Assembly: GCA_015484595.1 (NCBI GenBank)
Contig: WFMM01000008.1
Location: 288 to 64,287 of the forward strand
Origin: Nitrospirota bacterium
Lineage (GTDB): Bacteria > Nitrospirota > Thermodesulfovibrionia > Thermodesulfovibrionales > JdFR-85
DNA length: 64,000 nt
Direction: 5' to 3'
Below, piece by piece: positions 22,152-38,773 of the stretch. The translations under genes were made by a program, and so were the position numbers. The notes beneath the pieces were generated by a model. The model saw only the letters and a list, made by a program, of their open reading frames with translations, did no database searches and was not told the origin of the DNA. Every line of letters begins with the position of its first letter. The stretch's first letter is position 1.

Positions 22152-22907
22152 TCATAGAGCAACGATACTCCAAAGGAGTTTTGATGCCACAAATAAAAGT
22201 ATCAGGGCAAACATCTGTTTTATCCACTTTGCCTTCATCTTCTCCTTCATCACATAGGCACCTATATTTGCACCCACTATCACCGCAAGGGCTGTTGAAA
22301 GCATAAGGGGCCAGTTGAAATGCCCCTCTGATAGATGCCCTACAAACCCTGAAAAGGATGAAAATATCACCACAAAGGCACTGGTTGCCGCAGCCTTTTT
22401 TGTCGGGTATCCAATGGCAAGCATCAGGGGAACAAAAAGAAATCCACCACCGATACCAAGAAGTCCGGCAATCATGCCGATAAGGAATCCACCTGCACCC
22501 ATCAGTAGCATCCTGAGGCCTATGGAGACCTCCCTTTCGGTATCGGGCTTGTGTGCTGTAAGGAGCATCCTTCCACCTGCAAAACACATGGCAATGGCAA
22601 ACATGAGTATCAGAATCCTTGTTGGAATCATGTCAGTAAGATATGCACCCACAGGTGCACCTATGAAAGAGGACAACACAAGGGGGATTGAGCCCTTTAC
22701 ATCCACCATCTTTGCCCGGAAGTAGACAACCGAGGCAGACACCACGGTGATACCGTTAAGCAAAAGCCCCGTTGGTATCGCCTCGGTCTTGAAGTCGTAT
22801 CCAAACCAGTGAAACACAGGTATGTAAAGCATGGCCCCGCCAAGACCGAGCATGGAAAAGACAAAGGCAAGGCCGAAGATGAGCAGTGAAACAACCACAA
22901 TAGTCAT
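22152..22907 (-). CDS. TauE/SafE-family anion exporter (membrane protein)
   Basis: 251 aa, polytopic, with two repeated halves containing GLGGG/GIGGG motifs. Confidence 0.75.
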   Translation of the reverse strand: MTIVVVSLLIFGLAFVFSMLGLGGAMLYIPVFHWFGYDFKTEAIPTGLLLNGITVVSASVVYFRAKMVDVKGSIPLVLSSFIGAPVGAYLTDMIPTRILILMFAIAMCFAGGRMLLTAHKPDTEREVSIGLRMLLMGAGGFLIGMIAGLLGIGGGFLFVPLMLAIGYPTKKAAATSAFVVIFSSFSGFVGHLSEGHFNWPLMLSTALAVIVGANIGAYVMKEKMKAKWIKQMFALILLFVASKLLWSIVAL

Positions 22908-22933
22908 AATGTTCTCCTCTTATTTATTTTGGT

Positions 22934-23060
22934 CAGGATGTTATTGCCTTTTCACTCATTCTCGCAGGACATCCTGTCCTGCTCCGAAAAACCACACTGA
23001 AGCAGCCATCCAGGCTGCTTCGGGCGAGTGCTGAAGCCGTTCAAAGGCAATAACATCCTG
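22934..23060. other. 127-bp structured element closed by an 18-bp perfect inverted repeat, with inner hairpins
   Basis: caggatgttattgccttt (22934-22951) pairs with aaaggcaataacatcctg (23043-23060). Inner hairpins are gcaggaca-tcc-tgtcctgc and gaagcagcc-atcca-ggctgcttc. Lies between the FmdE-like stop and the TauE start. Confidence 0.7.
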
Positions 23061-23070
23061 TTCCCATACC

Positions 23071-23679
23071 TCACTCTCCATACCCCGAGCAGGGGATGCA
23101 TACCAGTTTATTATCTGTAGTGAGCCTGAGTTTGTTTACAAAGGTAAGTTCCCCACAACTTTCGCACCTCTTTGCCTCAAAGATACCGGATCTCTTCTCA
23201 ACGGGCACCTCCTTTATTTCACCTATCTCAAGGAATTCCTCAACCGGAACAGTCAATATCTTATCCACCAGAGGGTCTGTAATCTCAGGCGGGATGTCCT
23301 GTGGGGGCACTCCCTCCTTACGCCTTTGCACAAAGGGTGAGTTAAGGGCCTTTTCAAAGAAATCCGGCTTTACCGAGACCCTTACCGAGCGGCCTGTTTT
23401 CTGGTCAATCAGGGTAAAGGCAAGTTTGTTGTAGTAGAGTTTCTGGACATTGGACTTACCATAGGTACAGCCCGTGGCGGTCATGATGCCGTCAAGAAAA
23501 CAGCCTGCGGCATGTCCCTTGCCTGTCTCAGAAAGCACAAAGAGTTCCTTGTCCTTGGCCCTTTCCACACCAAGGACCTCCATTGCCTTAAACCCCGCCC
23601 TGAGTCCCATGGGCATTGCAGGACACCTGTGCCCGTGAAACCTCATTGCCACATCAAGGTATTCCCTAAATTCCTTCAT
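23071..23679 (-). CDS. FmdE-domain protein with a C-terminal zinc ribbon
   Basis: The track ORF is trimmed to ATG 23679, which is preceded by GGAGGTG. Contains [16 protein letters not shown] (FmdE signature) and C-terminal CESC...CIPC. Confidence 0.75.
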
Positions 23680-23945
23680 CTCACACCTCCATTTTTTTAA
23701 TATGCTCAGCGAGCGCATTCCCCTGCAGCAAGACCGCAAGGCTCTTCGTTAAACCGGACAAAGACCGACGATATTTTATAATATTTTTTACTATATAATT
23801 ATTTAGTTATATTAAAATAAAAAAATAATAATTAAAAAAATAATAATTAAAATATCCTTTGTTAACCTGACATGCATGTTTAGACATTTAAAATGGCTCT
23901 AAACTTATATATCTGCTTCTTATATAACTCCAAGTAACTGATCTA

Positions 23946-24203
23946 TCAGCAACCCATATCAACACCGTCGTCCCAGGGGTCTTCCTCTTCGGGGTCATCA
24001 TCGGTTTTTTGGGTGGCTGATTTAAGGTCCTCTACTTTTAGCCTCCGGTGATTTTTTATCTTTAAGTGCTCGGTGTCCTGTGTGCTCTGTGAAGGCTGAA
24101 GGATGGTCTTTTTTGTCTGGTTAAAGAGCGACAGGTTTCCCCCTGCAATGGCGTTTGTTGTAAGGAAAAACAAAACTAAGAGTGAAATAGTCAGGGACTT
24201 CAT
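23946..24203 (-). CDS. Small secreted acidic protein, unknown function
   Basis: 85 aa. Signal peptide MKSLTISLLVLFFLTTNAIAG, acidic C-terminal half (DDDPEEEDPWDDGVDMGC). Last gene of the ArsR-headed operon. Confidence 0.45.
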   Translation of the reverse strand: MKSLTISLLVLFFLTTNAIAGGNLSLFNQTKKTILQPSQSTQDTEHLKIKNHRRLKVEDLKSATQKTDDDPEEEDPWDDGVDMGC

Positions 24204-24209
24204 ATTCTA

Positions 24210-24812
24210 TCACCTGCCTTCAGTGACTGGTTTTAGGCCATCGGGCACCTTCTTTGCATTGAGGTTTGCGATGGCCATGATGCCACCCTTAAGGGCGTAT
24301 ACATTATTATAACCCAGGATCCTCAGAGCCGTGGTAACGATTATCGCCCTTGGGCTACTGTGACAGATAATGACCACTGTGCCATCTGTTGGAATCCTGT
24401 CAAGGTTTTTCATTATGTCGGTCATCTGTATCCTCAATGCACCTGTAACACGGGTAAGTGCCTGCTCCTCTGGTGTGCGGACATCAATAAGGGTAATTTT
24501 TTCTCCCTTCATCATTTTTTTAACAAGTGCCTTTGCTGATATCCTGATGTCTCCTTTTTTCTGAACCTCACGGGTCATGAGGGAGAGGAACTCGTCTGCG
24601 TTTTTTGCAACTGCTGCCTTTTCAAGCCTTATCCTGAGGGCAGGATTTTCTGGGTTCTTTGCCAGGGCACTCAGGTAGGCATCCATTGCCTTTGCATACT
24701 TTGCCTGCTGAAAATAGAGGTCTCCCTGTTTTAGAATCTCATCAACAGATGAAGCCACTGCGGGCATTGCCATAACCAGCAGGGCAAATAATATTATAAG
24801 TGACTTTTTCAT
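24210..24812 (-). CDS. Periplasmic TPR and rhodanese-domain protein
   Basis: The track ORF 24210-24905 is trimmed to ATG 24812 (MKKSLIILFALLVMAMPAVASS signal peptide); the upstream extension is repeat R4. Contains a TPR segment and a rhodanese domain with active-site loop CHSSPR. Confidence 0.75.
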   Translation of the reverse strand: MKKSLIILFALLVMAMPAVASSVDEILKQGDLYFQQAKYAKAMDAYLSALAKNPENPALRIRLEKAAVAKNADEFLSLMTREVQKKGDIRISAKALVKKMMKGEKITLIDVRTPEEQALTRVTGALRIQMTDIMKNLDRIPTDGTVVIICHSSPRAIIVTTALRILGYNNVYALKGGIMAIANLNAKKVPDGLKPVTEGR

Positions 24813-24833
24813 CTTGGTCCTCCTTGAAGATTT

Positions 24834-24894
24834 AACCACAGAGGGCACAGAGTAATAAATAAAAACTCTTTTTTTCTCTTTGTTCTCTGTGGTT
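24834..24894. repeat. Repeat family R4 hairpin (AACCACAGAG ... CTCTGTGGTT)
   Basis: aaccacagagggcacagagtaataaataaaaactctttttttctctttgttctctgtggtt. Intercistronic. Confidence 0.85.
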
Positions 24895-24901
24895 TTAAAT
24901 T

Positions 24902-25135
24902 TCATCCGCCAAGCAGAGACTTGATTTTCTCAAACGGCGGTAAAGGCTTTCCTGCATGAAGTAGTTTGCCATCGATTACAAGTCCTGGAGTGCTCATGGT
25001 GTATTTCATTATCTCCGCCATGTCGGTGACCTTCTCAACAGTGGCGTTAATGCCAAGTTCCTTTATTGCCTGCTCTACTCTTCTTTTCATCTCCTCACAG
25101 TTTGGGCAACCTGGACCCAAAACCTTGATTTCCAT
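24902..25135 (-). CDS. Small thioredoxin-fold protein (redox-active disulfide protein 2 type)
   Basis: The track ORF is trimmed to ATG 25135, preceded by GAGGAGG. MEIKVLGPGCPNCEEMKRRV with a CPNC motif, 77 aa. Confidence 0.85.
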   Translation of the reverse strand: MEIKVLGPGCPNCEEMKRRVEQAIKELGINATVEKVTDMAEIMKYTMSTPGLVIDGKLLHAGKPLPPFEKIKSLLGG

Positions 25136-25165
25136 ATTTAACCTCCTCGATTTTAAAATATTTAG

Positions 25166-25243
25166 AACCACAGAGAACACAGAGTACCCAGAGCACACAG
25201 AGTAATAAACAAAAACTCTTTTTTCTCTGTGTCCTCTGTGGTT
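25166..25243. repeat. Repeat family R4 hairpin, second copy
   Basis: aaccacagagaacacagagtacccagagcacacagagtaataaacaaaaactcttttttctctgtgtcctctgtggtt. Confidence 0.85.
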
Positions 25244-25247
25244 TAGT

Positions 25248-26204
25248 CTATAGTATTGCATTAAACAGATAGCCAACGCTTATTATAGTTAAAGTCATTA
25301 TGCCAATAAATACTCCGAGCATCTGGGGTTTTAGGACCTTCCTCAGGATTATCATCTCTGGAAGAGACAGTGCTGTCACAGCCATCATAAAGGCAAGCAC
25401 CGTTCCCATGCTAAGGCCCTTCTCCATCAGCGCATAGACAATGGGTATCACCCCTGCTGCGTTTGAATAAAGGGGCACTCCAAGAAGCACTGCCGCAGGC
25501 ACAGCCAGTGGGTTCCCTGGCCCTGCAATCCTTGTAAGAAAATCCTCAGGCACATATCCGTGTATAAATCCTCCGATACCAATGGCAATGAGGATAAAAA
25601 GCCAGACCCTCCGCAGGATGTCCTTAGTGTTCCACTTTGCATACTCGAGCCTCTCGCGAAAACCCTGCTTTATAACATCACTGCCCTGCCCTGTCCTTAT
25701 CTTATAGACATACTCCTCTATCCACTTTTCAAACCCGAGCTTTCCGATTATCATACCACCGAATATTGCCACCAATAGCCCAGCTCCGATATAAATGGCC
25801 GTAACCTTCCAGCCAAAAAGCCCATAAAGTAAAACCACAGCTATCTCGTTTACCATTGGAGAGGAGATAAGAAAAGAAAATGTCACACCAAGGGGCACGC
25901 CTGCTTCAACAAAGCCAATAAAAAGAGGAACTGCCGAGCAGGAACAAAAGGGTGTTACCACACCAAGAAGTGCGGCAAGGATATTTCCGATAAAGAGCCT
26001 TCGATGGCTTAGAATCTTCTTTGTCCTCTCTGGTGGGAAAAAACTCCTCACAAAGGAGACGACAAATATCACCACCGCAAGAAGCAGAAATATCTTTAAC
26101 GTGTCGTAAACAAAAAAGTGCAGGGCATCTGCAAGCTTTGTCTGAGGTGAAAGCCCAAAAAGTTTAAAGACCACCGTGTCTGCTATCCATTTAAGCATTC
26201 TCAA
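25248..26204 (-). CDS. COG0701-type permease with a vicinal-Cys motif (ArsP-like permease family)
   Basis: 318 aa, polytopic. TPFCSCSAVPLF motif. Downstream of arsR and upstream of the thioredoxin-fold gene, a common arrangement. Confidence 0.75.
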   Translation of the reverse strand: MRMLKWIADTVVFKLFGLSPQTKLADALHFFVYDTLKIFLLLAVVIFVVSFVRSFFPPERTKKILSHRRLFIGNILAALLGVVTPFCSCSAVPLFIGFVEAGVPLGVTFSFLISSPMVNEIAVVLLYGLFGWKVTAIYIGAGLLVAIFGGMIIGKLGFEKWIEEYVYKIRTGQGSDVIKQGFRERLEYAKWNTKDILRRVWLFILIAIGIGGFIHGYVPEDFLTRIAGPGNPLAVPAAVLLGVPLYSNAAGVIPIVYALMEKGLSMGTVLAFMMAVTALSLPEMIILRKVLKPQMLGVFIGIMTLTIISVGYLFNAIL

Positions 26205-26298
26205 ATCATCCTTTTAATTGTGTTCTTTTAAATTATCTATATTACTATATAGTAATAGAGTAGTGTTTGTCAAGAATGATGTTACCTTACGAAGATGT

Positions 26299-26634
26299 TT
26301 ATCTCCCCTTTTGGGTTACATTGGAGAGTGCTTTGGCAAGCTCAGCAGACTTAAGGAGTTCTTTCTGAACCATCTTTTCTACCTTATCAAGGATTTCAAA
26401 TACCACCTTATCTTTAATCTTATAATATGAGCTTACACCTACCTTTCTGAACTCCACTATACCCGTCTGCCTTAAAAGGGAAAGGTGCTTTGAAACATTT
26501 GCCTGCTCTTCGCCAAGTATGGGAAGCATCTCACAGACACAACGCTCTCCTTCTCTCAGGAGTTCTACTATCTTAAGCCTCGTGGGTTGTCCCAGTGCCT
26601 TCAGGATATCTGCCTTTCTCTGCAGGATGTCCAT
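26299..26634 (-). CDS. ArsR/SmtB-family metalloregulator
   Basis: 111 aa. LGQPTRLKIVELL HTH region and a CVCE metal/metalloid-binding motif. Confidence 0.88.
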   Translation of the reverse strand: MDILQRKADILKALGQPTRLKIVELLREGERCVCEMLPILGEEQANVSKHLSLLRQTGIVEFRKVGVSSYYKIKDKVVFEILDKVEKMVQKELLKSAELAKALSNVTQKGR

Positions 26635-26723: not shown

Positions 26724-28433
26724 ATGACCAATAATTCATTAAAGAAGAGATTAATACTCGTTACCGCCCTTGTCATTTCTTTGCTATTAATTAGCAAGCT
26801 TACTCTCCATTCTGCCCAGAGACCAGTCCGCATAGGTATAGCCTCCATGATTACACCTGTTGATGCGGTGAAATACTACCAGGAGATTGTTGATTATGTG
26901 GGTGAAAGGCTTGGTATGCCTGTTGAAATGGTATTAAGAAGGACCTATGATGAGATGGATAAGTTACTTGAGAAGGGAAAGGTGGACATTGCCTTTATCT
27001 GCTCTGCACCCTATGTTAAAAACCGCAGGGAGTTCGGCGTTGAACTCCTGGTGGCTCCCGAGGTAAAGGGCAGAGCCTTTTACAAGTCTTACATCATCGT
27101 TCATAAAGACAGCCCCTTTAAAAGGTTTGAAGACCTTAAGGGACATACCTTTGCATTTACTGATCCCAAGTCAAACTCGGGCAGGCTCTATCCTGTATAC
27201 AGGCTTGCTCAAAAGGGGCTGAGACCAGAAGATTTCTTCAAAAAATACATCTACAGTTACAGTCATAACAAATCGGTTGAACTGGTTGCAAAGAGGATAG
27301 TTGACGGTGCTGCAGTTGAAAGCCTGGTTTATGAATATATGAAAAAACAGGGAAACCCCTATGTGCAGGAGACAAGAATCATAGAGAAATCCCCTGATTT
27401 TGGTATTCCCCCAGTGGTTGTATCAACAGGTGTATCCCTTTTTGTGAAGGAAAAGATAAAGGAGATACTTCTTAACATGCACAGGACAGCAGAGGGTAAG
27501 AGGATACTTTCTGCAATGAACATAGACAGGTTTGTTGAGGTTCCTGACTCTAATTATGACTCCATAAGGGAGATGGAAAGGGTAGTTAGCAAATTACGCC
27601 CACCTTCAAAAGAACAAAAAAAGGATGACTCCATCATATACTTTGGTGTAATCCCGAGGGATAACCCCCGTATAACCTACGAGAAGTATCAACCTCTGAT
27701 AGATTACCTGACCGAGACCACAGGGCACCGTTTTGAACTGAAACTTAAAAAGAGTTATGAGGAAACAGTGGTCTCTCTTGGTAATGGTGAGACAGATGTG
27801 GCAATACTTGACCCCCTTACATATCTTGAAGCGCATGCCAGATATGGGGCAGTCTGTATATTAAAGTCTGTAAACTCCAAGGGCGAACCCTTTTACTATT
27901 CCATGATTATCACAAAAAAAGACAGGCCTTTAAAGTCCCTCTCAGAGCTTAAGGGTAAGAGCTTTGCCTTTTCAGCTATTAAATCGACCGCTGGAAACCT
28001 GATACCCCGATATCTGCTTGCCGAGGCAGGCATACATCTTGGAGACCTGGGGATGTATAAAAACTTCTATTATTATGAAACAGTTGTAAAGAGGGTTTTA
28101 AGTGGCGAGTTTGATGCAGGCGCTGTAAGGGATGCAGTTGCCAACAAATACATGCCCCTTGGGATAAAGGTGATTGCCCGGTCTGAGCCTATTCCTACTG
28201 GCCCTGTGGTAATAGGCCCGAGAACATCCTTTGTTACAGGCGAGATGATAAAGTCAGCCTTGATCAATATAAACAAGACCAAAAGGGGGCAGCAGGTTCT
28301 TAAAAAACTTGACCCTGAATTCTGGGGTGGTTTTGTTGAGGCAAGGGATTCAGATTATCAGGGGATAAGGGATATGATTAACAATGTGCCAAAGACCTGC
28401 GGGATGGGATGTCATCCAAAGATAAAACTATAG
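26724..28433 (+). CDS. Secreted protein with two tandem PhnD-type (phosphonate/oxyanion) substrate-binding domains
   Basis: The track ORF is trimmed to ATG 26724 (MTNNSLKKRLILVTALVISLLLISK signal/anchor). Two homologous halves each carry F(A)FTDPKSNSGRLYP / FAFSAIKSTAGNLIPRY motifs. The C-terminus reads TCGMGCHPKIKL. Confidence 0.75.
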   Translation: MTNNSLKKRLILVTALVISLLLISKLTLHSAQRPVRIGIASMITPVDAVKYYQEIVDYVGERLGMPVEMVLRRTYDEMDKLLEKGKVDIAFICSAPYVKNRREFGVELLVAPEVKGRAFYKSYIIVHKDSPFKRFEDLKGHTFAFTDPKSNSGRLYPVYRLAQKGLRPEDFFKKYIYSYSHNKSVELVAKRIVDGAAVESLVYEYMKKQGNPYVQETRIIEKSPDFGIPPVVVSTGVSLFVKEKIKEILLNMHRTAEGKRILSAMNIDRFVEVPDSNYDSIREMERVVSKLRPPSKEQKKDDSIIYFGVIPRDNPRITYEKYQPLIDYLTETTGHRFELKLKKSYEETVVSLGNGETDVAILDPLTYLEAHARYGAVCILKSVNSKGEPFYYSMIITKKDRPLKSLSELKGKSFAFSAIKSTAGNLIPRYLLAEAGIHLGDLGMYKNFYYYETVVKRVLSGEFDAGAVRDAVANKYMPLGIKVIARSEPIPTGPVVIGPRTSFVTGEMIKSALININKTKRGQQVLKKLDPEFWGGFVEARDSDYQGIRDMINNVPKTCGMGCHPKIKL

Positions 28434-29890
28434 TTACGGGCTTTTTAAGCAGAATACCACTACAGCAGAAGTTTATCCTTATCACTTCAGTAGCCATTGT
28501 GGTGCTGATGAGTATTATAGGATACCTTGTGACCATGAGGGAGCGTCAGATAATGTATGCAGACATTGAGCGGCAAGGCAGGGTGTTTGCCGAGACCCTT
28601 GCAATACCTGTAATCAACGACCTTATTTACGAACGGATGGGGCTTGTGGAGGAGGGTGGCCTTATTGACAACTACATTCGGGGCATATTCAATAAAAAGG
28701 AGTTGAACCTTCTTTATCTTGCAGTGCTTGACGAAGATGGAAGGGTCATCTCTCATAATGACTTTAGAGAATACGGAAAGGTTTATACTGACCCCCTGAC
28801 CAGACATGCCCTCAGGGCAAACACCACGGTGGTGCAGAAGTTTCACAGCAGCAAGACAGGCCACGATGCCCTTGATTTTGCCACTCCTTTATCAATCGGG
28901 AAAAAACGATGGGGAACCCTCAAGTTTGCTATCTCCCTTGAAGAGGTGGAGCATGAGATTTCAAATATGGTAAAAGGAATACTGTTCTTCACACTTGTGG
29001 TCCTTGTCGTGGGATTTTTTATAATCATAATTCTCAGTAGAAGGTTTATAAGACCCATAACCTATCTTGCCCGAACCATGGAGCGTGCTGGCTCAGGTGA
29101 CCTTGATGTGAAGGTTCACATAAAGGGTAATGACGAGCTTGCCCTTTTAGGACAGAGTTTTAACAACATGATAGAGCGGATAAAGCAGGCAAACCTTGAA
29201 CTAAAAAGGACACATGAAAAGCTACTTCAATCAGAAAAACTGGCATCCATTGGTATCCTCGCCTCTGGCGTTGCCCACGAGATTAACAACCCCCTTGGCG
29301 GAATGTTCAACTGTGTGGATATGCTTGAACTGATGGGTGAAAATGAGGAATTAAGACAGAAGTATCTCCACCTTCTTAAAGATGGGTTAAACAGGATTGA
29401 ATCAATCGTGGGGAAACTCCTCTGGATGTCAAGAACGGGAAGCCGTAATCCAGAGGTGGTCGATGTAAAAGCCCTGCTTCAGGACATCTATAAGTTCGTT
29501 GAGTACAGGTTAAGAAATAAAGACATAAGATACAGCGTAGATATAGAAGATGGCCTGACCATAATAATAGACCCCCACGATTTTCAACAGATTATGCTTA
29601 ATCTTATAATCAATGCAATCCATGCCATCAACAATACGGGAGAGCTTACGATAAAGGGCTACAGCGAGGACGATTACAAGATTATCACTGTTACGGACAC
29701 TGGAGAGGGAATTGACAGGGAGAATCTTCCTAAGATATTTGACCCCTTCTTTACCACAAAGCAGCCTGGTGAGGGCACAGGACTTGGACTCTGGTTGACT
29801 TACGAGATTGTTAAAAACTATAATGGCGAAATCACTGTAGAAAGCCAAAAGGGAGTTGGAACCACCTTTACGCTTAAGTTTAAGAGGTGA
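28409..29890 (+). CDS. Sensor histidine kinase (periplasmic Cache-like domain, HAMP, HisKA, HATPase)
   Basis: 493 aa. TM1, a roughly 150-aa extracytoplasmic domain, TM2, HAMP, H-box VAHEINNPL, GTGLGLWL. Overlaps the binding-protein gene by 25 nt. Confidence 0.88.
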   Translation: MSSKDKTIVTGFLSRIPLQQKFILITSVAIVVLMSIIGYLVTMRERQIMYADIERQGRVFAETLAIPVINDLIYERMGLVEEGGLIDNYIRGIFNKKELNLLYLAVLDEDGRVISHNDFREYGKVYTDPLTRHALRANTTVVQKFHSSKTGHDALDFATPLSIGKKRWGTLKFAISLEEVEHEISNMVKGILFFTLVVLVVGFFIIIILSRRFIRPITYLARTMERAGSGDLDVKVHIKGNDELALLGQSFNNMIERIKQANLELKRTHEKLLQSEKLASIGILASGVAHEINNPLGGMFNCVDMLELMGENEELRQKYLHLLKDGLNRIESIVGKLLWMSRTGSRNPEVVDVKALLQDIYKFVEYRLRNKDIRYSVDIEDGLTIIIDPHDFQQIMLNLIINAIHAINNTGELTIKGYSEDDYKIITVTDTGEGIDRENLPKIFDPFFTTKQPGEGTGLGLWLTYEIVKNYNGEITVESQKGVGTTFTLKFKR

Positions 29891-31245
29891 TGATGGATAA
29901 AAAGTCAGTTCTCATAATTGAAGATGAAAGGATAATGCGCATAACCATCGAGGATGCCCTTAAGGCTAAGGGTTATGAGGTAAAATCCTTTGAAAGGGCA
30001 TCGGATGGGCTGAAGGCATACAGCGAAGAGCCATTTGATATCGTGCTTACCGATGTAAGACTGCCTGACATAAACGGTATGGAGGTGCTAAGGAGGATTA
30101 AGGAGATAGATGATTCCTCTATGGTTATCATAATGACCGCCTTTGGCACCATAAAGGATGCGGTTGAGGCAATGAAGATGGGGGCCTTTGACTACATAAC
30201 CAAGCCATTCAGCCTTGATGAACTCTCATTGATTATCAGCAGAGCGGCAGAGGTAAAAAAGATGCAGGATGAAAACCTGAGACTTAAAAAGGCCATCTCC
30301 CGTTGCTATTGTTACCCAAACATTATTGGCGAAAGCGATGCAATGAAGAATGTATTCAGGATGATAGAGAGGCTTTCGCAATCGGACTCAACGGTTTTAA
30401 TACTTGGTGAAAGCGGAACTGGAAAGGAGCTGATAGCATCCACGATACATTATCAGGGAAAGAGGAAGGATGCACCCTTTGTGATTGTAAACTGCGGGGC
30501 ATTGCCAGAAAACCTTATCGAAAGCGAGCTCTTTGGTTACGAAAAGGGGGCCTTTACAGGTGCCACCCGCCGAAAACCCGGCCGTTTTGAGCTTGCAGAC
30601 GGCGGAACCATCTTTCTTGACGAGGTCGGGGAATTGCCCCCATCAGTGCAGGTCAAGCTCTTGAGGGTGCTTCAGGATGGAACCTTTGAACGACTTGGTG
30701 GAACAGAGACCATAAAGGTGGATGTAAGGGTAATTGCTGCAACCAATCGAGACCTTGAAAGGGAGGTAAGGGAGGGAAACTTCAGAGAAGACCTCTACTA
30801 CCGTCTTGCCGTAATACCCCTGACACTTCCACCACTCAGGGAAAGACGAGAGGACATCCCTCTTTTGATTGAGCACTTTCTTCAGCGTTGTAACAGCCGC
30901 CTTGGTAAACAGATTGTCTTTTCAAAGGATGCAGTGGAGGCACTCATGGAGTATCCTTTCCCTGGAAATGTCAGAGAGCTTGAAAACATCGTTGAGCGTA
31001 TGGTGACCCTCTGTGAATCAGACAGGGTAAAACGGGAAGACCTCCCTCAGCATGTGCTTAAAAAGGGACAGAAAAAAGACACTCCTGCCCAGCCACTTAC
31101 AAAGGTGGCTCAGGAAGCTGAAAAACAATACATTATCAGGGTTCTTAAACAGACAGGTGGTAACCGAAGCCGTGCTGCCTCAGTGCTTGGCATTAGCCGC
31201 AAAACCCTCTGGGAAAAGATGAGACAGTACGGCATAAATAACTGA
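29887..31245 (+). CDS. Sigma-54-dependent response regulator (NtrC/Fis family)
   Basis: 452 aa. Receiver domain, AAA+ domain with GESGTGKE and GAFTGA, C-terminal Fis HTH. Confidence 0.92.
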
Positions 31246-31329
31246 ATGAAGAAACCTGCGGCCTTACTGTCATTAAAGGCTCCTCAGACTCTCATACCAC
31301 CACATCTCCGAGGCAGTTAAGTACAGGAT

Positions 31330-31448
31330 GATGGACATGGGATGTTATAGGGATATCATAAGTGGTTTAGGCACATGGCGGGAAGGTGGAGGTTAACAGT
31401 GTCCCTGGTGAGGGAAGTGTATTTACTGTTTATCTGCCGGGCGGGTAA
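31330..31448 (+). pseudogene. Remnant of a histidine kinase C-terminus (HATPase tail)
   Basis: GCA 31371 to TAA 31448 reads AHGGKVEVNSVPGEGSVFTVYLPGG-stop, a typical kinase C-terminus. Upstream, DMGCYRDIISGLG resembles the G2 box but sits in another frame with stops. Confidence 0.65.
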
Positions 31449-31511
31449 TCGCCTGATTTTTTATCCTGAAAGTTAGATTTGATATATGAATGATATATTT
31501 TCTGGAGGCAA

Positions 31512-31821
31512 ATGATGGAAACGCAGATGCTTATTCGTCTGAATAAAGAGACAAAATACCGGCTTAGCAGACTGGCAAGGGAAGCGGGTAAAAAGGATTA
31601 TAGACCTGTGGAAGGAAGGCACTGTAACACTCTGTATTTCCAGAGGCATACTTGATGAATATATTGATGTCCTAAGCAGGTTGGGTATGGAGGGTGAGGA
31701 GGAATTAGAGGTGATTATAACAGGGGACAGACACCTTTTATCTGTAGAGAGTTTCGGCGGAGTAGATATATTGACTCCAAGGCAGTTTCTTGAAAGGATA
31801 CGAGACCTCTTAGATGGCTGA
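31512..31821 (+). pseudogene. Decayed toxin-antitoxin locus: RHH-like antitoxin start joined out of frame to the C-terminal half of a PIN-family toxin
   Basis: Frame 1: MMETQMLIRLNKETKYRLSRLAREAGK, then nonsense and a stop at 31649. Another frame: RIIDLWKEGTVTLCISRGILDEYIDVLSRL...VIITGDRHLLSVESFGGVDILTPRQFLERI-stop, which is the tail of a TIGR00305-type PIN protein. The N-terminal PIN acidic residues are missing. Confidence 0.6.
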
Positions 31822-33202
31822 GAGGATACTTCATACCGTAACACTCCTTGGTCACTGGGGATACCTGATAATCTTCCTTGCGGCCTTCCTTGAGAGTTCT
31901 GCCTTCATGGGACTTCTGGTGCCGGGTGAGTCGGTGGTGGTGCTTTCGGGTTTTCTTGCCTCAAAGGCCGTCCTTGACATCGGCGACTGTATATGGATTA
32001 TCGCCCTTGGTGCCGTGCTTGGCGACTCGGTGGGCTACAGCCTTGGCAAGGCCCTCGGAAGGGGATATTTCCAGAGGCACAGCCGTCTCCTTCTTCTTAA
32101 AGAAAAGCACATCCACAGGGTAGAAGAATACTTTGAGCACCACGGTGGAAAGACCATATTCTTTGGCCGGTTTATCGGTCTTTTAAGGGCAATGGCTCCC
32201 TTTGTGGCAGGTATGTCTCGGATGCCCTATGGTAGGTTTTTTATTTACAATGCCTCTGGTGGCATCCTCTGGGCAGTGGCATTTACACTTCTTGGGTATT
32301 TCTTTGGCCAGAGCTGGCAGTTGATTGAGAGGTGGGCTGGAAGGGCAGGTGTATTTGCAGTCTTTGTCCTTCTGGTGATAGGTGGGTTTGGGTATATCTA
32401 CCGTAAGGCAGCAGGAAAGAGGGAGGAGATCTACCGTTGGTTTCAGGAAAGGGCAGAGAAGGTCTCACAGAGCAGGAGACTTTCAGAGTTTGTGCAGTCT
32501 CATCCCCGTATGGTCTCATTCATAAAGGAGAGGCTTTCACCCCGCAGTTATCTTGGGCTTCACCTGACTGTAGGGCTTCTCGTGAGTGTCCTTTTTGTAT
32601 GGCTCTTTGGAGGCATCACCGAGGACATCCTCACAGGAGACCCCTTTGTGCAGGTTGACCGGTGGGTGGTCTCACAGGTCTTATACTTCAGGGCAGGCCC
32701 TGTTACAGCCTTTATGAAGGCCATAACCCACCTTGGCGGAGGGGTAACCATTGCAGGGGGAAGCCTTATACTCATCGTCCTATTTCTTCTTTTTAAGAGA
32801 TGGGACTATGCAGTGGGGCAAACAGTGGCGGTTATGGGAGGAAGCATCCTTGTGTTTGTGTTAAAGGCGGCGGTGCACAGGCCAAGGCCCATAACAGAGA
32901 CCACCCTGGTTCGGGCATGGGGATGGAGTTTCCCCAGCGGACATGCTATGATGTCAGTGATCTTCTATGGGATGCTCTCATACTATCTTGTCCGTGCCTT
33001 AAGGCAGTGGAGGTTTCAGGTCCTGACGGTTACTGCCTCGGGTTTTCTGGTATTTCTGATCGGCCTTAGCAGGATTTATCTTCAGGTTCACTACCTTAGT
33101 GATGTTATAGGGGGCTTTGCAGGCGGGATGTTCTGGCTCAGTGTCTGCATCACAGGGCTTGAGGTTTACAGAAGACGGAAAAGAAGGATTACAAACCTGT
33201 AA
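31814..33202 (+). CDS. DedA-family membrane protein fused to a PAP2 lipid phosphatase domain
   Basis: 462 aa. The N-terminal roughly 200 aa are DedA/SNARE-associated (GYLIIFLAAFLESSAFMGLLVPGE). The C-terminal PAP2 domain has all three motifs: KAAVHRPRP, PSGH, SRIYLQVHYLSD. Confidence 0.85.
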   Translation: MAERILHTVTLLGHWGYLIIFLAAFLESSAFMGLLVPGESVVVLSGFLASKAVLDIGDCIWIIALGAVLGDSVGYSLGKALGRGYFQRHSRLLLLKEKHIHRVEEYFEHHGGKTIFFGRFIGLLRAMAPFVAGMSRMPYGRFFIYNASGGILWAVAFTLLGYFFGQSWQLIERWAGRAGVFAVFVLLVIGGFGYIYRKAAGKREEIYRWFQERAEKVSQSRRLSEFVQSHPRMVSFIKERLSPRSYLGLHLTVGLLVSVLFVWLFGGITEDILTGDPFVQVDRWVVSQVLYFRAGPVTAFMKAITHLGGGVTIAGGSLILIVLFLLFKRWDYAVGQTVAVMGGSILVFVLKAAVHRPRPITETTLVRAWGWSFPSGHAMMSVIFYGMLSYYLVRALRQWRFQVLTVTASGFLVFLIGLSRIYLQVHYLSDVIGGFAGGMFWLSVCITGLEVYRRRKRRITNL

Positions 33203-33250
33203 TCTTCAGGTAATCCTCCGATAATCTTTCCTTCCTATAATAGGCATACC

Positions 33251-34639
33251 ATGTTCAGTTACAGAGTGTCATTACTCCTGATATGCCTTGTGGCGGTCTC
33301 CCTCCTTCAGAGCTGTGCCACCTATCAGGCAAAGACACTAAGAAGGGCCGATATTGAGGCATCACTCAGGCCGCCTGATAACCAGACCATCCTGGTTAAG
33401 GCCGAAAGGATAAGGCATCCCATTTTAAGGCCCATCAGGATTGACCTCAAAGACGGGCTTGGCCCTGATGAGGCAGCAGTGGTGGCGGTCATTGTAAACC
33501 CTGCACTCAGGGCAGAGAGAGACAGGGCCGGTATTGCCCGTGCACAACTCATTCAGGCAGGTCTTCTGCCCAACCCTCAACTTTCCCTCAGCATGGATAT
33601 CCCATCTGGTGGTGATACAACGGACACGGTTACAGGATACGGCCTCGGGCTCGGCATTGACCTGAGGTCCCTTATCACAAGAGGTGCAAGGCGTAAGGCG
33701 GCAGAGAAAGAACTCTCCTCTGTCAACCTTGAGGTGGCCTGGAAGGAGTGGCAGGTTGCAGAGGCAGCAAAGATGCACCTGTATCACATCTATTACCTGA
33801 ACCGCCTTCGTGACCTTGCTAAAAGGGCACTAAGCCTTGCAGACGAAAACTTAAATGCCATGAAAGAGGCAGTCCTGGCAGGTGAAAGGATATCTGCTGA
33901 CCTGAGCGATATGGAGGTAAGGGTAAAAGATGCCGTGACCACCCTTACTGACATAGAGATGAAGACGAAAAAGGAAACCCTGCTTCTTAAAAGAGCCATG
34001 GGATTTCCACCTGATAGGGTTATTCCTCTACAGAAGAAGATTAAAAACCCCTTCCTCTGCAGAACTCCCGAACCGGAAGAACTTCTTAACTCCCTCTATA
34101 GCAGACCTGATATCCTTGCACTCAGGGAGGCTTACAGTGCAGAGGATGCCAGACTGAGGGAGGCCATCCTCTCACGGTTTCCTGACATAGGCATTGGGAT
34201 TGGTTATTCACGGGGAACAGACGGCCTTATCACCATCGGGCTATCTATCAGCATAGAACTGCCCCTTTTTGACCATGCCCAGGGTAGGGTCGCCCTGAGA
34301 AAGGCCACCATGAAGGAGGTCTTTGACAGGTATGTAGCAAGGGTATTTGAGGCACGCTCGGAGGTGATGGAACTTATCTCTGATATGGGTTTTATAAAGA
34401 GAAAACTCCATACCCTACGGAACCTGATTAATTACCTGAAAGGCCAGTGCCAGACATACGGGGAGTTATTGAAGGTGGGGATGACAGATAAACTCCATTA
34501 CTACGATGTCTGTAGCAGATTGATTTCTGAAGAGATAAAGGAGATAAAACTCAAAGAGTTGCTTACAGATATGGGGATTGGTATTGAGACCGCCTCTGGC
34601 AGGTATTTTCAGACAGAGGGCTGCACTTTTGATAAATAA
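33251..34639 (+). CDS. TolC-family outer membrane efflux lipoprotein
   Basis: 462 aa. Lipobox LLQSC, and the two-repeat OEP architecture typical of RND-associated outer membrane factors. Confidence 0.82.
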   Translation: MFSYRVSLLLICLVAVSLLQSCATYQAKTLRRADIEASLRPPDNQTILVKAERIRHPILRPIRIDLKDGLGPDEAAVVAVIVNPALRAERDRAGIARAQLIQAGLLPNPQLSLSMDIPSGGDTTDTVTGYGLGLGIDLRSLITRGARRKAAEKELSSVNLEVAWKEWQVAEAAKMHLYHIYYLNRLRDLAKRALSLADENLNAMKEAVLAGERISADLSDMEVRVKDAVTTLTDIEMKTKKETLLLKRAMGFPPDRVIPLQKKIKNPFLCRTPEPEELLNSLYSRPDILALREAYSAEDARLREAILSRFPDIGIGIGYSRGTDGLITIGLSISIELPLFDHAQGRVALRKATMKEVFDRYVARVFEARSEVMELISDMGFIKRKLHTLRNLINYLKGQCQTYGELLKVGMTDKLHYYDVCSRLISEEIKEIKLKELLTDMGIGIETASGRYFQTEGCTFDK

Positions 34640-34655
34640 ACACGGAGGCAAAGGC

Positions 34656-35751
34656 ATGAGAAACCCTGTAATGGCTTTCAGTATATTTATTGCCCTTCTG
34701 ATTACAATCATCGGGGGAGGATACCCCCTTTCGGCGCATGGTGAGGCTCTGGCAAGAGGGAAAGATACTCTTCAGGGATTCAGGATTAAGACATCCCGGC
34801 CCTCAAAGAGGCCATTCCGTGTCACAATCAATTTCTACGGAGGTGTTGTTAGCCAGCATAAGGTGGCACTCAGGGCACCAATTTCAGGCAGGATTATGAA
34901 GATCAGGGCCGCAGATGAGGCTGAGGTAAAAAAGGGAGACATCCTCTTTGTCATGGGTGGGCCTGAGGTTGAGAGAAAGATACAGGCCCTTAACTCGCAG
35001 GCATCCCATCTCAGGGGACTTTTATCAGAACTCAGGGGCGTGCTTAAGAGGAAGGAGAGTGCCCTTTAAGAGAAAACTCATCTCCATAGATGAACTTGAG
35101 GCAGTGAAACTTCAACTCATTAAGACAGAGAATGCCTACAACGAGAGCCTTCTTAAACTTCATCAACTTGAGGATTCCCTGAAACTCAGGGCACCACTTG
35201 AAGGTAGGTTCACGAGAAGGACAGTTTTTGAGGGCCAGGATGTGGACAGGGGCGAGGTCATTGGCTATATCGTTGATACCCGTCATCTCAGGGTGGTTGG
35301 GACGGCCTTTCCCCGGCATGAATATACAGAAATTAAAGGGAAAAAGGCGGTTATATACACCGGGGATGGTCTTTCTGTCCATGGCACTGTCAAAAATGTC
35401 CTGACTGAAAGGGCACCTTCAGGGGGTGTAAGGGTATGGATTGAGTCAGGGGATATAGACAGGGCACTCAGGGTCGGCGAGTCTGTCCGTGGCATCATAG
35501 TATTGAGGACAGACCGGAATGCCCTTTCAGTGCCTGAAAGGGCGGTGGTCTATGATGAGCATGGAAGGCCCCTTGTATTTATCAGGACAAAGGATAACCA
35601 GTATGTAAGATGGCCCATCCGTGTAGGGGTTTTATCAGGTGGGTCGGTTGAGGGCATCTCAGGCATCTCAGAGGCAGATGAGGTGGTAATAGAGGGTGCC
35701 TATGAACTCTTTTACAGGGATTTCAACCGCACCTTCAGGGTGGCAGACTGA
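34656..35751 (+). pseudogene. RND membrane fusion protein (HlyD family) interrupted by a +1 frame change at 35064-35069
   Basis: Two overlapping track ORFs (34578-35069 and 34948-35751) together make one MFP. The lipoyl half is in frame A (LRAPISGRIMKIRAADEAEVKKGDILF). The hairpin, second lipoyl half, beta-barrel and MP domain are in frame A+1 (LISIDELEAV..LRAPLEGRF..). Confidence 0.8.
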
Positions 35752-37228
35752 TGAGGACCATACTTAAAAGACTCACTGACAATCCCCTTATGATGGTATT
35801 TGCCGTGGTGGTTATCGCATTTAGCGGCATATTTGCAGCCACCCACATGCCTGTTGACCTCTTTCCCAACCTTGATATCCCTGTGGTCAATATCATCACC
35901 CACTACCCCGGGGCATCCCCTGAGGAGATGGAACTCCTGATAAGCAGGCCCGTGGAGGATGTCATGAGGGGGCTTCAGGGGGTAAAGCGTGTCTCATCCA
36001 CATCAGCACTCGGGGTCTCGGAGGTTACGGTGGAGTTTACATGGGGCACTACTGTGAGGGATGCAAGGCAGTTGGTTCAGGCAGGTCTTTCCAGGCTGAA
36101 TGGACTCCTGCCACAGGGGGTTGTCCCAAGGATGGAAAACATCGGCACCACCCTGCAGGAGGTAACAGGCTATGTGGTGGTGTTACCATCTATGGCACGG
36201 ATACTGAGCGCCTCATATCCCTTGCAGACAGGGTTGAGGGGTTAATGTCCAGAGAGCCTTCCTTATCAAACATCGTTAATAATACAAAGATAAAGGCAGG
36301 GGAGGTGGTGGTGAGGCTTAGATATCCCGACCTTGCCCGTTATGGGGTAAGCACAGAGGAGGTCTTTGATACCCTTGAGTCTGCATTTACCGGTCTTGAG
36401 GCCACGGGGATAATAAGACAGCAGGAGACGGTGGGCATTGTGGTGAAACTCAGGGGGATTGACACTCACAGGCCAGAGGATATCCGCAGGATCCCCATCA
36501 ATACAGCCACAGGGGAGGTAATACCCCTTGACAGGGTGGCCGATGTCAACCTGATACACACACCTTCAACCATCACAAGGCTCAACGGTCAGAGGGAGAT
36601 AACCCTTGTGGCAGAGGTGGAGGGCTCAATCCCCCGTGTGGTTTCAAGGTTGAGGGAGAAGTTCAGCCAGTTGAAAATCCCTGAGGGCTACTCCATTGAG
36701 TTTACAGGCCAGTTCAGGGTGCTCACAAGGACACTCTATGAACTAGTAATGGTGGTTGTGGCTGCTGTGGTTCTTATCTACCTCATAATGGCGATGCAGT
36801 TTCGCTCATTTCTCCAGCCCCTGATGATACTGACAACCATCCCACTGTCACTCGTTGGTGCGGCAGTCGGGCTTTTTATTACACATAAAGGCCCTGATGT
36901 ATCTGTTGGTATGGGCATTATCACACTTGTGGGTATTGCCGTAAACAATGCCATTATACTCGTGGATTATGCAAACAGTGAGATAAGGCGAGGAAGCCGC
37001 CCCGAGGAAGCACTCATTAAGGCATCCTCTGTGAGGCTAAGGCCCATACTGATGACAGCACTTACCACCATCTTTGCACTCATACCCATAGCCATAGGCA
37101 CAACCACTGGGTCCAATATCTTTCAGTCCTTTGCGATTACCGTAATTGGCGGGCTCCTGACCGGCACCCTCTCCACCCTCCTTGTGGTGCCTGTTTTGAT
37201 AAGTATCCTGAATAATGACAAAAACTGA
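35751..37228 (+). pseudogene. RND efflux pump (AcrB/CzcA superfamily) with a large internal deletion and a frame change
   Basis: ORF 35751-36245 gives TM1 and the first roughly 140 aa of an RND pump. ORF 36041-37228 gives the last roughly 350 aa (second periplasmic loop end and TM8-12). The total of about 490 codons compares with about 1,000-1,050 for the family. The frames differ at about 36171-36195. Confidence 0.8.
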
Positions 37229-37520
37229 AGAAACCTGCTTAACAGGGCCTCGGTATAATGCCACCTGCCGCAAGACAAGAGATGTCCGGAGGCAGAAATG
37301 AAAGTGAAGCTCCCCGGCCAAAGGTCGGGGCTTCCAATGCAAGGAAAATGAAAATTTTTATTATTATTCTTGCCTTCATCCCCGACTGTCGGGGTCCCCA
37401 AAAAGTCATAAACTTTTTGGGGTGGAGGTGTCGGGGCTTTCGGCAAGGGTCATTGTAACCGCTTTCCGTTAGTTAGAGATTTCCAGAGGACAGCCTGATT
37501 GCTCGCTGCACAATCAAACC

Positions 37521-38760: not shown

Positions 38761-38773
38761 ATAGGAGGTGTGT

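Follow-up and report, generated by a model that had tools for sequence, protein, structure and literature searches.

Introduction

AioX, ArxX and ArrX are periplasmic binding proteins, each of which governs the genes of an arsenite oxidase or an arsenate reductase together with its kinase and response regulator; two of the regulators, AioR and ArxR, are sigma-54-dependent (PMC5908839). In the AioXSR and ArxXSR systems, the presumed binding site of the activator is an inverted repeat, located upstream of the RpoN promoter that serves an enzyme of the dimethyl sulfoxide (DMSO) reductase family (PMC5908839). Here, we analyzed a similar arrangement in a 64,000-nt stretch of DNA (hereafter, the window) from a Nitrospirota bacterium of the lineage Thermodesulfovibrionia (GenBank assembly GCA_015484595.1, contig WFMM01000008.1). 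It contains three overlapping genes, denoted X, S and R, that encode a tandem PhnD-like binding protein, a membrane kinase and an NtrC-type activator, and, further downstream, a pair of genes for a TtrBA-like molybdenum (Mo) enzyme. It is moderately likely, judging from the sequences, that this is a three-component sensor of the AioXSR/ArxXSR/ArrXSR type, which would respond to an arsenic oxyanion and drive the ttrBA-like operon. That the trio controls the promoter of the Mo enzyme at position 37716, whatever its signal, is very likely.

Binding-protein folds also serve sensing, not transport, in the TorT-TorS-TorR and TtrS-TtrR/ThsS-ThsR systems, which control respiratory enzymes of the DMSO reductase family. 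In the former, TorT is a periplasmic protein of its own, which docks on TorS; in TtrS, a PhnD-like domain is fused to the kinase. Neither TorR nor TtrR is a sigma-54 activator. Two binding folds per polypeptide are found in BvgS (VFT1-VFT2) and GlnPQ (SBD1-SBD2), which were among the Foldseek matches of X (4q0c and 6h30); their domains, however, are fused to a kinase or a permease, whereas the tandem X protein is free-standing and appears to combine two distinct oxyanion-sensor lineages.

Like AioXSR of Rhizobium sp. NT-26 and Agrobacterium tumefaciens and ArxXSR of Alkalilimnicola ehrlichii, the window encodes a transporter-less periplasmic PtxB/PhnD-like protein, a membrane kinase and an NtrC-type activator. 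It shares with the AioXSR, ArxXSR and ArrXSR systems an AioX-subfamily domain (domain 1 of X), the lack of a transporter, and adjacent and co-oriented X, S and R genes, and with AioXSR and ArxXSR also a sigma-54 activator with a predicted inverted-repeat operator. It differs from AioXSR and ArxXSR in that X has two domains of two lineages and a CX3CH tail, that the target is of the TtrA type and not AioBA or ArxAB, and that the host is an anaerobic member of the Nitrospirota. Domain 2 has no Cys in its pocket, unlike the AioX subfamily, and X is 569 aa long, compared to a single domain of ≈270–300 aa in AioXSR-type systems. The sequence of the repeat, GTTAC-N6-GTAAC, presumably differs from that of the AioR site.

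Among individual systems, ArrX of Chrysiogenes arsenatis (PDB 6x6b) is the best match of domain 1 in both sequence and structure, but the corresponding ArrR is a CitB/FixJ-type regulator without an AAA+ domain (PMC5908839), whereas R in the window is a sigma-54 activator. In Melioribacter roseus (MROS_1069/1070), which we liken to the window by its published description and not by sequence, a PhnD-like protein, a kinase and a regulator, together named ArrTSR, are encoded right upstream of a ttr locus, beside arsRPCB (PMC5492636). In contrast to the window, X is single-domain in both Chrysiogenes and Melioribacter. The X-S-R-ttrBA clusters of Deferrisoma and Geothermobacter have homologous S and R proteins (32–43% identity), a TtrA with 60–62% identity, paired operators and an X protein ending in CGxxCH. 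Unlike the window, these clusters lack the ArrX-like domain 1, lie inside classical ars islands and have no insertion between R and the promoter; their X is annotated as a phosphonate binding protein.

The design of binding protein, kinase and sigma-54 activator serving a DMSO-reductase-family enzyme was thus already known, and the association of XSR with ttr genes has been published for Melioribacter. What appears to be novel here is the fusion of two X lineages and the invariant C-terminal CGxxCH; literature searches found no description of either the two-lineage X or the universal tail. An earlier interpretation of the window that was made from the letters and open reading frames (ORFs) (the sequence-only reading) had overlooked both the established three-component paradigm and the two-lineage origin of the X domains.

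Organization of the Putative Sensor Trio

The trio and the end of its transcription unit comprise the following features:

26724–28433, + strand: X gene, 569 aa from the ATG at 26724 (the ORF opens at 26679)
28409–29890, + strand: S gene, membrane histidine kinase, 493 aa
29887–31245, + strand: R gene, NtrC-type sigma-54 activator, 452 aa
31438–31465, + strand: terminator-like hairpin and T-run, ≈190 nt past the R stop codon

According to the ORF list, X and S overlap by 25 nt and S and R by 4 nt. X contains two stretches of the Phosphonate-bd family (PF12974; E = 6e-134 in Pfam). Pfam and hydrophobicity divide S into a first transmembrane segment (TM1), a periplasmic sCache_3_2 domain, TM2, HAMP, HisKA and HATPase_c, with the hydrophobic segments at residues ≈22–42 and ≈191–211 and a periplasmic stretch of ≈145 aa between them. 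R consists of REC, Sigma54_activat, AAA_lid_14 and HTH_8 (a Fis-type helix-turn-helix) and carries GAFTGA in its AAA+ domain (Pfam, NCBIfam and a motif check). The S protein is 32–35% identical to those of Deferrisoma and Geothermobacter, and R is 41–43% identical to the R proteins adjoining ttrBA orthologues in isolates. No ABC permease or ATPase genes were found within ≈10 kb on either side of the trio. The hairpin at 31438, a pattern match from a consensus scan, is probably the end of the XSR transcript.

These assignments, supported by the ORFs, Pfam and an AlphaFold2 (AF2) model, agree with the sequence-only reading, which had described a tandem PhnD-like protein, a Cache/HAMP kinase with an extracytoplasmic domain of ≈150 aa, and a GAFTGA activator, and had noted the lack of a permease or ATPase beside the binding protein. 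Its proposal that the binding protein is a co-sensor of the kinase and not part of an importer is borne out by the missing ABC genes and by the kinship of X to ArrX and AioX, described below.

The X Protein

Three parts of X could be distinguished:

26823–27593, + strand: domain 1, ArrX/AioX-type, aa 34–290
27630–28391, + strand: domain 2, second X lineage, aa 303–556
28398–28415, + strand: C-terminal C-G-M-G-C-H (CX3CH) motif, aa 559–564; the protein ends in CGMGCHPKIKL

The AF2 model of X, made with 17 family members in the alignment, had a mean pLDDT of 85 and shows two complete binding-protein folds, preceded by a hydrophobic helix at residues 3–28. Residues 1–31 are predicted to be a signal peptide or anchor, and X is a putative secreted tandem PhnD-fold protein. 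At a pTM of 0.50, the model carries no confidence in the arrangement of the two domains relative to each other; the tail had low pLDDT and no structure.

In a sequence search of the Protein Data Bank (PDB), domain 1 matched ArrX from Chrysiogenes arsenatis (E = 1.4e-50) and AioX from Rhizobium NT-26 (6e-46), with PtxB (3e-20), HtxB and PhnD behind. Identity was 37% to ArrX and 33% to AioX. A Foldseek search with the AF2 model gave a TM score of 0.94 and an rmsd of 1.6 Å for ArrX, and a TM score of 0.92 for AioX. The pocket of the AioX family is formed by Y88, C106, Y131, S161, S163, H192 and D210, and its Cys is not found in PhnD (PMC5908839). In HMMER alignments onto AioX, the equivalents in domain 1 were Y75, C93, Y120, S150, S152, H181 and E199, so that six of seven residues are identical, with a D to E change at the seventh. 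Six of the pocket positions were invariant in the 17 family members, while S152 was either Ser or Thr.

Domain 2 has a different affiliation. It lacks a Cys at the position of AioX C106, has a pocket motif of the (H)STSGN type, and found HtxB and ArrX as its top PDB matches (≈1e-18). Its identity to the single-domain X proteins from Deferrisoma camini and Geothermobacter hydrogeniphilus is 43%, compared to only 25% for ArrX and AioX. Those two X proteins are 27–30% identical to domain 1, also lack the Cys, and have the C-termini CGGRCH and CGRRCH. The X protein of Desulfuromusa, on the other hand, is domain-1-like, with 37% identity to domain 1, 37% to ArrX, and the Cys present. By these comparisons, the two X domains appear to stem from two different sensor lineages, and the simplest history would be that a domain-2-type X-S-R cassette gained an ArrX-like domain at the N-terminus of X.

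At least 762 tandem homologues (≈565 aa) and at least 724 single-domain homologues of X passed the E-value cutoffs. Identity to the window X ranged over ≈57–95% among the 120 tandem homologues listed of the at least 762. A C-X3-C-H motif was present within the last 20–25 residues in all 240 homologues checked (120 of 120 tandem and 120 of 120 single-domain, domain-2-type proteins), and in the 17-member alignment C559, G560, G562, C563, H564 and P565 were invariant. The CGxxCH tail is missing from AioX, ArrX and the domain-1-type X of Desulfuromusa. Its pattern is reminiscent of a variant site for the attachment of c-type haem, or of a Cys2His site that holds a metal or metalloid.

Predicted Operators and Promoter

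A perfect sigma-54 promoter and two exact palindromes precede the Mo enzyme genes:

37521–37538, + strand: putative distal upstream activator site TGTTACCCTTCCGTAACA, exact TGTTAC-N6-GTAACA
37648–37665, + strand: putative proximal upstream activator site TGTTACTTTATCGTAACA, exact TGTTAC-N6-GTAACA
37716–37731, + strand: sigma-54 (−24/−12) promoter TGGCACATCAATTGCT, perfect consensus

TGGCACATCAATTGCT is the only perfect sigma-54 consensus in the 64-kb window; the sequence-only reading had likewise seen a single such promoter, 6.5 kb downstream of the trio in front of the Mo enzyme pair, and had proposed it as the target of the activator. The two palindromes are the only sites in the window with at most one mismatch, where 0.10 would be expected by chance and none of 100 shuffles reached two. 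From the start of the proximal palindrome to the start of the promoter there are 68 nt.

The related loci (designated by L numbers) include 80 tandem-family loci from a scan of one genome per species, all of these from metagenome-assembled genomes (MAGs) or single uncultured isolates, mostly of Thermodesulfovibrionia/Nitrospirota and some of Desulfobacterota. The X-S-R order was kept in nearly all related loci with enough flanking sequence. The nearest one (L006), from a Thermodesulfovibrio sp., has an X protein with 95% identity. In the closest loci with enough flanking sequence, the trio stands directly before the same pair of genes for an iron-sulfur (FeS) and a Mo subunit: L001, L002 and L007 (X 82% identical), L008 (70%), L003, L004 and L011 (67%), and L015 (65%), with TtrB 75–93% and TtrA 75–91% identical to those of the window. 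In L001, L002 and L007, X-S-R is followed by exact palindromes at +15 and +139 past the R stop codon, by TGGCACAGCGATTGCT at +207, and then by ttrB; the spacing between proximal palindrome and promoter in L001 is the same as in the window (the family mode is 58–60 nt), and its entire R-ttrB gap is 278 nt. L003 has the same order of X-S-R, palindromes, promoter and ttrB, with slightly degenerate sites. The contiguity of trio, palindromes, promoter and ttrBA-like genes in loci at 82, 70, 67 and 65% X identity, a co-occurrence that the sequence-only reading had suggested looking for, upholds the Mo enzyme promoter as the target.

The elements are conserved beyond these loci. Of the 71 loci that were informative, 58 have GTTAC-N6-GTAAC with at most two mismatches past the R gene, usually in pairs ≈88–91 nt apart, and in 37 of them a GG-N10-GC promoter lies 37–160 nt beyond a palindrome, whatever enzyme comes next. 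The R-ttrB spacers of Deferrisoma and Geothermobacter also contain GTTAC-N6-GTAAC pairs and a sigma-54 promoter. The binding of R to these palindromes, as suggested by the conserved synteny and cis-elements, would be the link between the trio and the enzyme. In Desulfuromusa kysingii (L087, 7990–8180), a different inverted repeat, TGTATA...TATACA, lies upstream of the sigma-54 promoter TGGCAAGCATCTTGCT. Since this organism has a domain-1-type X and a ttr cluster with NrfD, operator specificity appears to track the S/R lineage and not the enzyme.

The promoter region is flanked at 37290–37450 and 37780–37850 by short repeats that are GC-rich and resemble hairpins (ccccgactgtcggggtcccc and ggggctccgcccc, for example). 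They lengthen the ttrB leader to ≈250 nt, compared to ≈60 nt in L001. An Rfam search of 26–43 kb at E ≤ 1 gave no match, and hence no known riboswitch in this leader.

The Mo Enzyme and Its Downstream Genes

The genes behind the promoter are:

37984–38760, + strand: TtrB-like four-cluster FeS subunit, 258 aa, Fer4_11
38768–41956, + strand: TtrA-like Mo/W-bisPGD catalytic subunit, 1062 aa, Tat signal RRGLLKAG
42009–42407, + strand: stand-alone receiver domain protein, 132 aa, Pfam Response_reg
42442–42774, + strand: small conserved ORF, 110 aa, no Pfam match

The TtrB-like subunit is 84–93% identical in L001, L003 and L008, and its matches to the DsrO, TtrB and ArrB models were all under the cutoff. 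The best model for the catalytic subunit was NF011567 (TtrA), at 514 bits against a cutoff of 1750, followed by PhsA (NCBIfam). On the ArrA model, NF041714, it scored 129.6 bits against a cutoff of 1600, and the gene order is B then A, unlike arrA-arrB; by both score and gene order, the enzyme is thus set apart from ArrAB. No NrfD/TtrC membrane subunit is encoded between or after ttrB and ttrA. The locus also departs from TtrABC/TtrSR in its low TtrA score, the absence of TtrC, a binding protein that is separate from the kinase, and an R protein that is a sigma-54 activator. TtrA has orthologues with 60–62% identity in three cultured species, Deferrisoma camini, Desulfuromusa kysingii and Geothermobacter hydrogeniphilus, and in all three the gene lies behind those for a single-domain X protein, a kinase with an sCache domain and a sigma-54 activator. 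Most likely, the enzyme of the window is a respiratory arsenate reductase of the Ttr type.

A homologue of the receiver protein is found past the enzyme genes in several related loci, independent of the type of enzyme. The 110-aa ORF is weakly similar to the C-terminal part of MobB/FeS fusion proteins (NF011062, 34.7 bits, far under the cutoff), and it has homologues at 35–78% identity downstream of enzyme genes in many loci. The receiver protein, an FmdE-family protein and the ≈110-aa ORF recur after Ttr-, Arr- or Psr-like enzymes (L003, L024, L040, L061, L062 and L079). In the window, there is no FmdE gene in the downstream position; one is present upstream, at 23071–23739 on the − strand. 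A complete nuo (NADH:quinone oxidoreductase) operon starts at 42986, ≈200 nt past the small ORF.

Partner Enzymes in the Trio Family

The downstream enzymes were sorted by tblastn against five reference proteins in 85 loci (the 80 of the scan plus L001–L005, several of which duplicate one sequence); ArxA was not among the references. The outcome was as follows:

Nearest an ArrA-like reference (A then B order, TorD-type chaperone): 24 of 85 loci, ≈18 of them at ≥55% identity
Nearest the window TtrA: 15 of 85 loci, 11 at 67–91% (including duplicates) and 4 at 36–53%
Nearest the distant TtrA reference L062: 2 of 85 loci
PhsA/Psr-like: 6 of 85 loci, three at 86–100% identity
No Mo enzyme found despite ≥3 kb of flanking sequence: 14 of 85 loci

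Two of the ArrA-like references (L040 and L064) matched NF041714 ArrA over their full length with 1087–1160 bits, and the most frequent partner of the trio family is an ArrA/ArxA-like enzyme. Of the loci without a Mo enzyme, some have modules of multihaem cytochrome, FeS and NrfD genes after the trio, and one has unrelated housekeeping genes. Tandem-X trios with palindromes were also found before multihaem cytochrome c genes in Nitrospirota and Desulfobulbia (L022, 14845–18699; L049, 14708–15712; L066, 12712–13941); in L022 they are accompanied by genes for FeS and NrfD proteins, and in L049 an MCP gene comes after them at some distance. Regulator and operator thus form a conserved cassette that is placed before differing respiratory modules.

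The Insertion between R and Its Predicted Operators

Compared to its relatives, the window has additional DNA between R and the palindromes:

31260–37510, + strand: insertion of ≈6.3 kb relative to related loci, boundaries approximate
31514–31813: toxin-antitoxin-like remnants
31814–33202: DedA/VTT-PAP2 fusion, intact ORF
33251–34639: OEP (outer-membrane factor) gene, intact ORF
34578–35751: membrane-fusion protein (MFP) gene, broken into two frames
35751–37228: RND pump, deleted internally and frameshifted, with 164 aa + 395 aa left of the ≈1020 aa expected

The distance from the R stop codon to the first palindrome is 6276 nt in the window, versus 15 nt in L001, L002 and L007. The 395-aa piece of the RND pump covers only positions 671–1018 of the ACR_tran profile. 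The sequence-only reading had taken most of the intervening DNA for gene debris, which is true of the MFP and RND genes but not of the DedA-PAP2 fusion and the OEP gene, which are intact. An independent ENA contig with a 100% identical TtrA starts inside the RND remnant, so that this junction did not arise from an error in a single assembly. When the insertion was searched for repeats, neither terminal inverted repeats nor a convincing target-site duplication came to light; AAACCTG lies beside both junctions, which may be chance. We do not call the insertion a transposon. The circuit should remain functional in spite of it, since R acts in trans and both the sites and the promoter have been preserved.

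Behind a related XSR trio, L090 has an OEP gene (split into two ORFs) and then MFP and RND genes that are both full-length; efflux genes may thus be a recurrent neighbor of such trios.

The Nature of the Signal

Because domain 1 is closest to ArrX and AioX and has kept their pocket, an arsenic oxyanion is a more likely signal than tetrathionate or thiosulfate, neither of which was bound by AioX, ArxX or ArrX in isothermal titration calorimetry (PMC5908839). Several related trios are found among arsenic genes. In Deferrisoma, arsC-acr3-arsD-arsA-arsM lies immediately upstream of X, and in Geothermobacter, arsR-arsC-acr3-rhodanese is upstream of XSR. The domain-2-type XSR of L091, which precedes an ArrA-like enzyme (1168 bits), is adjoined by arsR, gapdh-arsJ and acr3, and the trio of L045 is followed by arsR-acr3-arsD-arsA. 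The 95% relative L006 has acr3 and arsC upstream of the TauE-to-ArsR block that it shares with the window.

Enzymes of the TtrA type have themselves been connected to arsenic. In work cited in a passage of PMC11462812, TtrA homologues of Anaeromyxobacter PSR-1 and Geobacter OR-1 are upregulated under As(V) respiration and reduce As(V), and a Pyrobaculum enzyme of the TtrA clade is cited in a passage of PMC7331816 as an archaeal arsenate reductase. The ttr transcript of M. roseus rose with arsenate, where only the psr/phsA induction was statistically clear (PMC5492636). Taken together, we hold the assignment of the signal to arsenic with moderate confidence.

From the directly established gene and domain content, the conserved synteny and cis-elements, and the kinship of domain 1 to ArrX and AioX, we infer a contact between X and S, the binding of R to the palindromes, and the identity of the ligand and of the enzyme substrate, as follows. 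Secreted X would bind a periplasmic oxyanion, most likely arsenate or arsenite, and the ligand-loaded protein would dock on the sCache domain of the kinase S, which would then phosphorylate the NtrC-type R. R would occupy both TGTTAC-N6-GTAACA sites, at 37521 and 37648, and activate the 37716 promoter, leading to expression of the ttrBA-like operon (37984–41956), which probably extends over the receiver gene and the small ORF to 42774. A more elaborate variant, tentative and on the whole doubtful, is that X has two inputs: the ligands of domains 1 and 2 would differ (As(III) versus As(V), for instance, or arsenic versus phosphate), the tail would have a c-type haem covalently attached or else form a Cys2His metalloid site, by which redox state or As(III) is reported, and the kinase would receive an integrated signal that arsenic is present and conditions are reducing.

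A number of observations weigh against arsenic, or against a working circuit. The entire case is built from homology and gene context. One and the same pocket serves AioX for As(III) and ArrX for As(V), so that the residues alone do not fix specificity (PMC5908839), and pocket position 199 of X is E where AioX and ArrX have D. The placement of the enzyme in a Ttr-type clade comes from its best NCBIfam match and from the XSR and ars context of its orthologues, and its comparison with the enzymes of PSR-1 (WP_059435911.1), OR-1 (WP_041969781.1), Melioribacter (MROS_1076) and Pyrobaculum aerophilum (PAE1265) is by their published descriptions. Classical ars genes were found within 10 kb in 9 of 81 loci (the 80 tandem loci and the window), and there are none in the 64 kb of the window itself. 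In part of the family, the trio is followed by genes for multihaem cytochrome/NrfD complexes or other Mo enzymes, or by unrelated genes. The insertion with its pseudogenes makes some decay of the locus possible, and in domain 2 of the window three pocket-region residues that are near-invariant in the family are changed: G363D (27809–27811), S423A (27990–27992) and H451Y (28074–28076).

If X instead sensed tetrathionate, thiosulfate or polysulfide, the enzyme would be a tetrathionate or thiosulfate reductase or would take part in sulfur disproportionation. The sequence-only reading had inclined to a tetrathionate/thiosulfate-type sensor, in the correct view that tetrathionate sensors such as TtrS have a PhnD-like sensing domain, and the TtrS model NF040750 does match domain 1 weakly (35.6 bits). 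The catalytic subunit scores best on TtrA (514 bits) and next on PhsA, the rhodanese, TauE and thioredoxin-like genes upstream could fit sulfur chemistry, and the trio precedes PhsA/Psr-like enzymes in L083, L061 and L079. In Desulfolithobacter, TtrA-type proteins are specifically produced, and abundant, in thiosulfate disproportionation (PMC9751629). However, a passage of the same paper cites an Anaeromyxobacter TtrA homologue as reported to be without tetrathionate reductase activity, and AioX, ArxX and ArrX do not bind these sulfur compounds, as mentioned above. The TtrA score is far under the equivalog cutoff and there is no TtrC; domain 1 is nearer to ArrX/AioX than to TtrS (177 vs 36 bits), with the pocket kept, orthologous clusters lie in ars islands, and the commonest partner enzymes are ArrA/ArxA-like. 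The TtrSR pair of Salmonella is a fused sensor with a regulator that is not of the sigma-54 type. A sulfur signal is thus quite unlikely, and it is not the best reading of the locus. The ligand or substrate might also be selenate, selenite, antimonate, antimonite or tellurate. The selenate reductase SrdA falls within the TtrA clade (PMC7331816), X scores 178 bits (cutoff 250) on TIGR04553, a "putative selenate ABC transporter SBP" model, one domain-2-type homologue is so named by NCBI, the pocket Cys and the CX3CH tail would suit thiophilic elements, and the trio family is coupled to several types of enzyme. We consider another oxyanion unlikely, given that the neighboring genes of related trios are acr3, arsC, arsD/A, arsM and gapdh-arsJ and not selenium or tellurium genes, that an ArrA/ArxA-like enzyme is the commonest partner, and that the ligands of the nearest characterized homologues are either As(III) alone or As(V) and phosphate (PMC5908839).

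Two further alternatives concern the function of the system as a whole. X could be a subunit of a phosphonate, phosphite or phosphate ABC importer with incidental two-component neighbors, as the annotation of homologues as "phosphonate transport system substrate-binding protein" implies; it exceeds the cutoff of TIGR01098, and on TIGR03431 (PhnD) it reaches 283.9 bits against a cutoff of 261, a score that barely passes by summing the two domains. This is extremely improbable, for in contrast to the PhnCDE, PtxABC and HtxBCDE importers there is no cognate ATPase or permease, no PhnC/PhnE-like genes were found near the trio or in related loci with listed genes, X-S-R overlap translationally and keep their order in nearly all loci with flanking sequence, and domain 1 has a Cys that PhnD lacks. 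Finally, the system might be decaying or non-functional in this genome, which would be compatible with any of the readings above. The ≈6.3-kb insertion of frameshifted and truncated genes between R and its sites, the three changes in domain 2, and the presence of acr3 and arsC in the close relative L006 but not in the window all fit such a relic. G363D and S423A are shared with the 95%-identical relative (P0001/L006), which has kept H451, so that H451Y is found in the window only, and, given the pocket changes and the insertion, a relaxed or drifting function of domain 2 in this lineage is possible. A relic is nevertheless very unlikely: X, S, R, TtrB and TtrA are all full-length ORFs, the domain-1 pocket and the CX3CH tail are intact, neither palindrome has a mismatch and the promoter agrees fully with the consensus, R acts in trans, which makes distance immaterial, and TtrA is 100% identical in an independent assembly. 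An arsenic-responsive trio that would control the ttrBA-like operon remains the reading that we prefer.

Genes Upstream of the Trio

Upstream of X, the following features were identified:

26299–26634, − strand: ArsR/SmtB-family metalloregulator, divergent from the trio (Pfam HTH_5, NCBIfam NF033788)
22152–26634: conserved block of arsR, ArsP_1 permease, MTH895/ArsE-type thioredoxin, TPR-rhodanese, a small ORF, FmdE and TauE
10833–18191, − strand: PilR (GAFTGA sigma-54 activator), PilS (6TM_PilS-PAS kinase), PilC and two T2SSE ATPases
10068–10829: FdhD/NarQ-family gene (sulfurtransferase for Mo-bisPGD enzymes), 16 kb upstream

The block from arsR to TauE is also found upstream of the trio in L003–L006 and L011. 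In the window, it is followed further out by genes of aromatic amino acid biosynthesis and then by the PilSR/type IV pilus cluster. A perfect AT-rich palindrome, TATTAC-TATATA-GTAATA, lies at 26240–26257, between the genes for the ArsP_1 permease and the ArsR-like protein. It differs from the R operator by two mismatches and is more likely an ArsR operator than an R operator. Besides R, the window encodes just one sigma-54 activator, also with GAFTGA (10833–12239, − strand). It was rejected as a candidate regulator of the 37716 promoter, as it is PilR, encoded with PilS and pilus genes.

Significance

The release of arsenic from anoxic sediments and paddy soils hinges on respiratory arsenate reduction. 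Recent metatranscriptomes suggest that ttrA-type genes, and not arrA, dominate in some soils, but the substrate of these enzymes is not predictable from sequence (PMC11462812). A conserved XSR sensor of the arsenic type, together with its operator (GTTAC-N6-GTAAC and a sigma-54 promoter) immediately before the enzyme genes, would provide a genomic marker by which Ttr-type enzymes that respond to arsenic could be told from true tetrathionate reductases. The use of X proteins as components of arsenic biosensors has been proposed (PMC5908839), and their public label, "phosphonate ABC transporter substrate-binding protein", is misleading.

With the arsenic assignment, XSR-Ttr biology of this type would extend to the Thermodesulfovibrionia and to many Desulfobacterota. 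If the two-input, cofactor-bearing reading of X were true, the CGxxCH-tailed X proteins would constitute an unrecognized class of cofactor-bearing binding-protein sensors, which would control Arr-, Ttr- and Psr-type enzymes as well as multihaem complexes across the Nitrospirota and Desulfobacterota.

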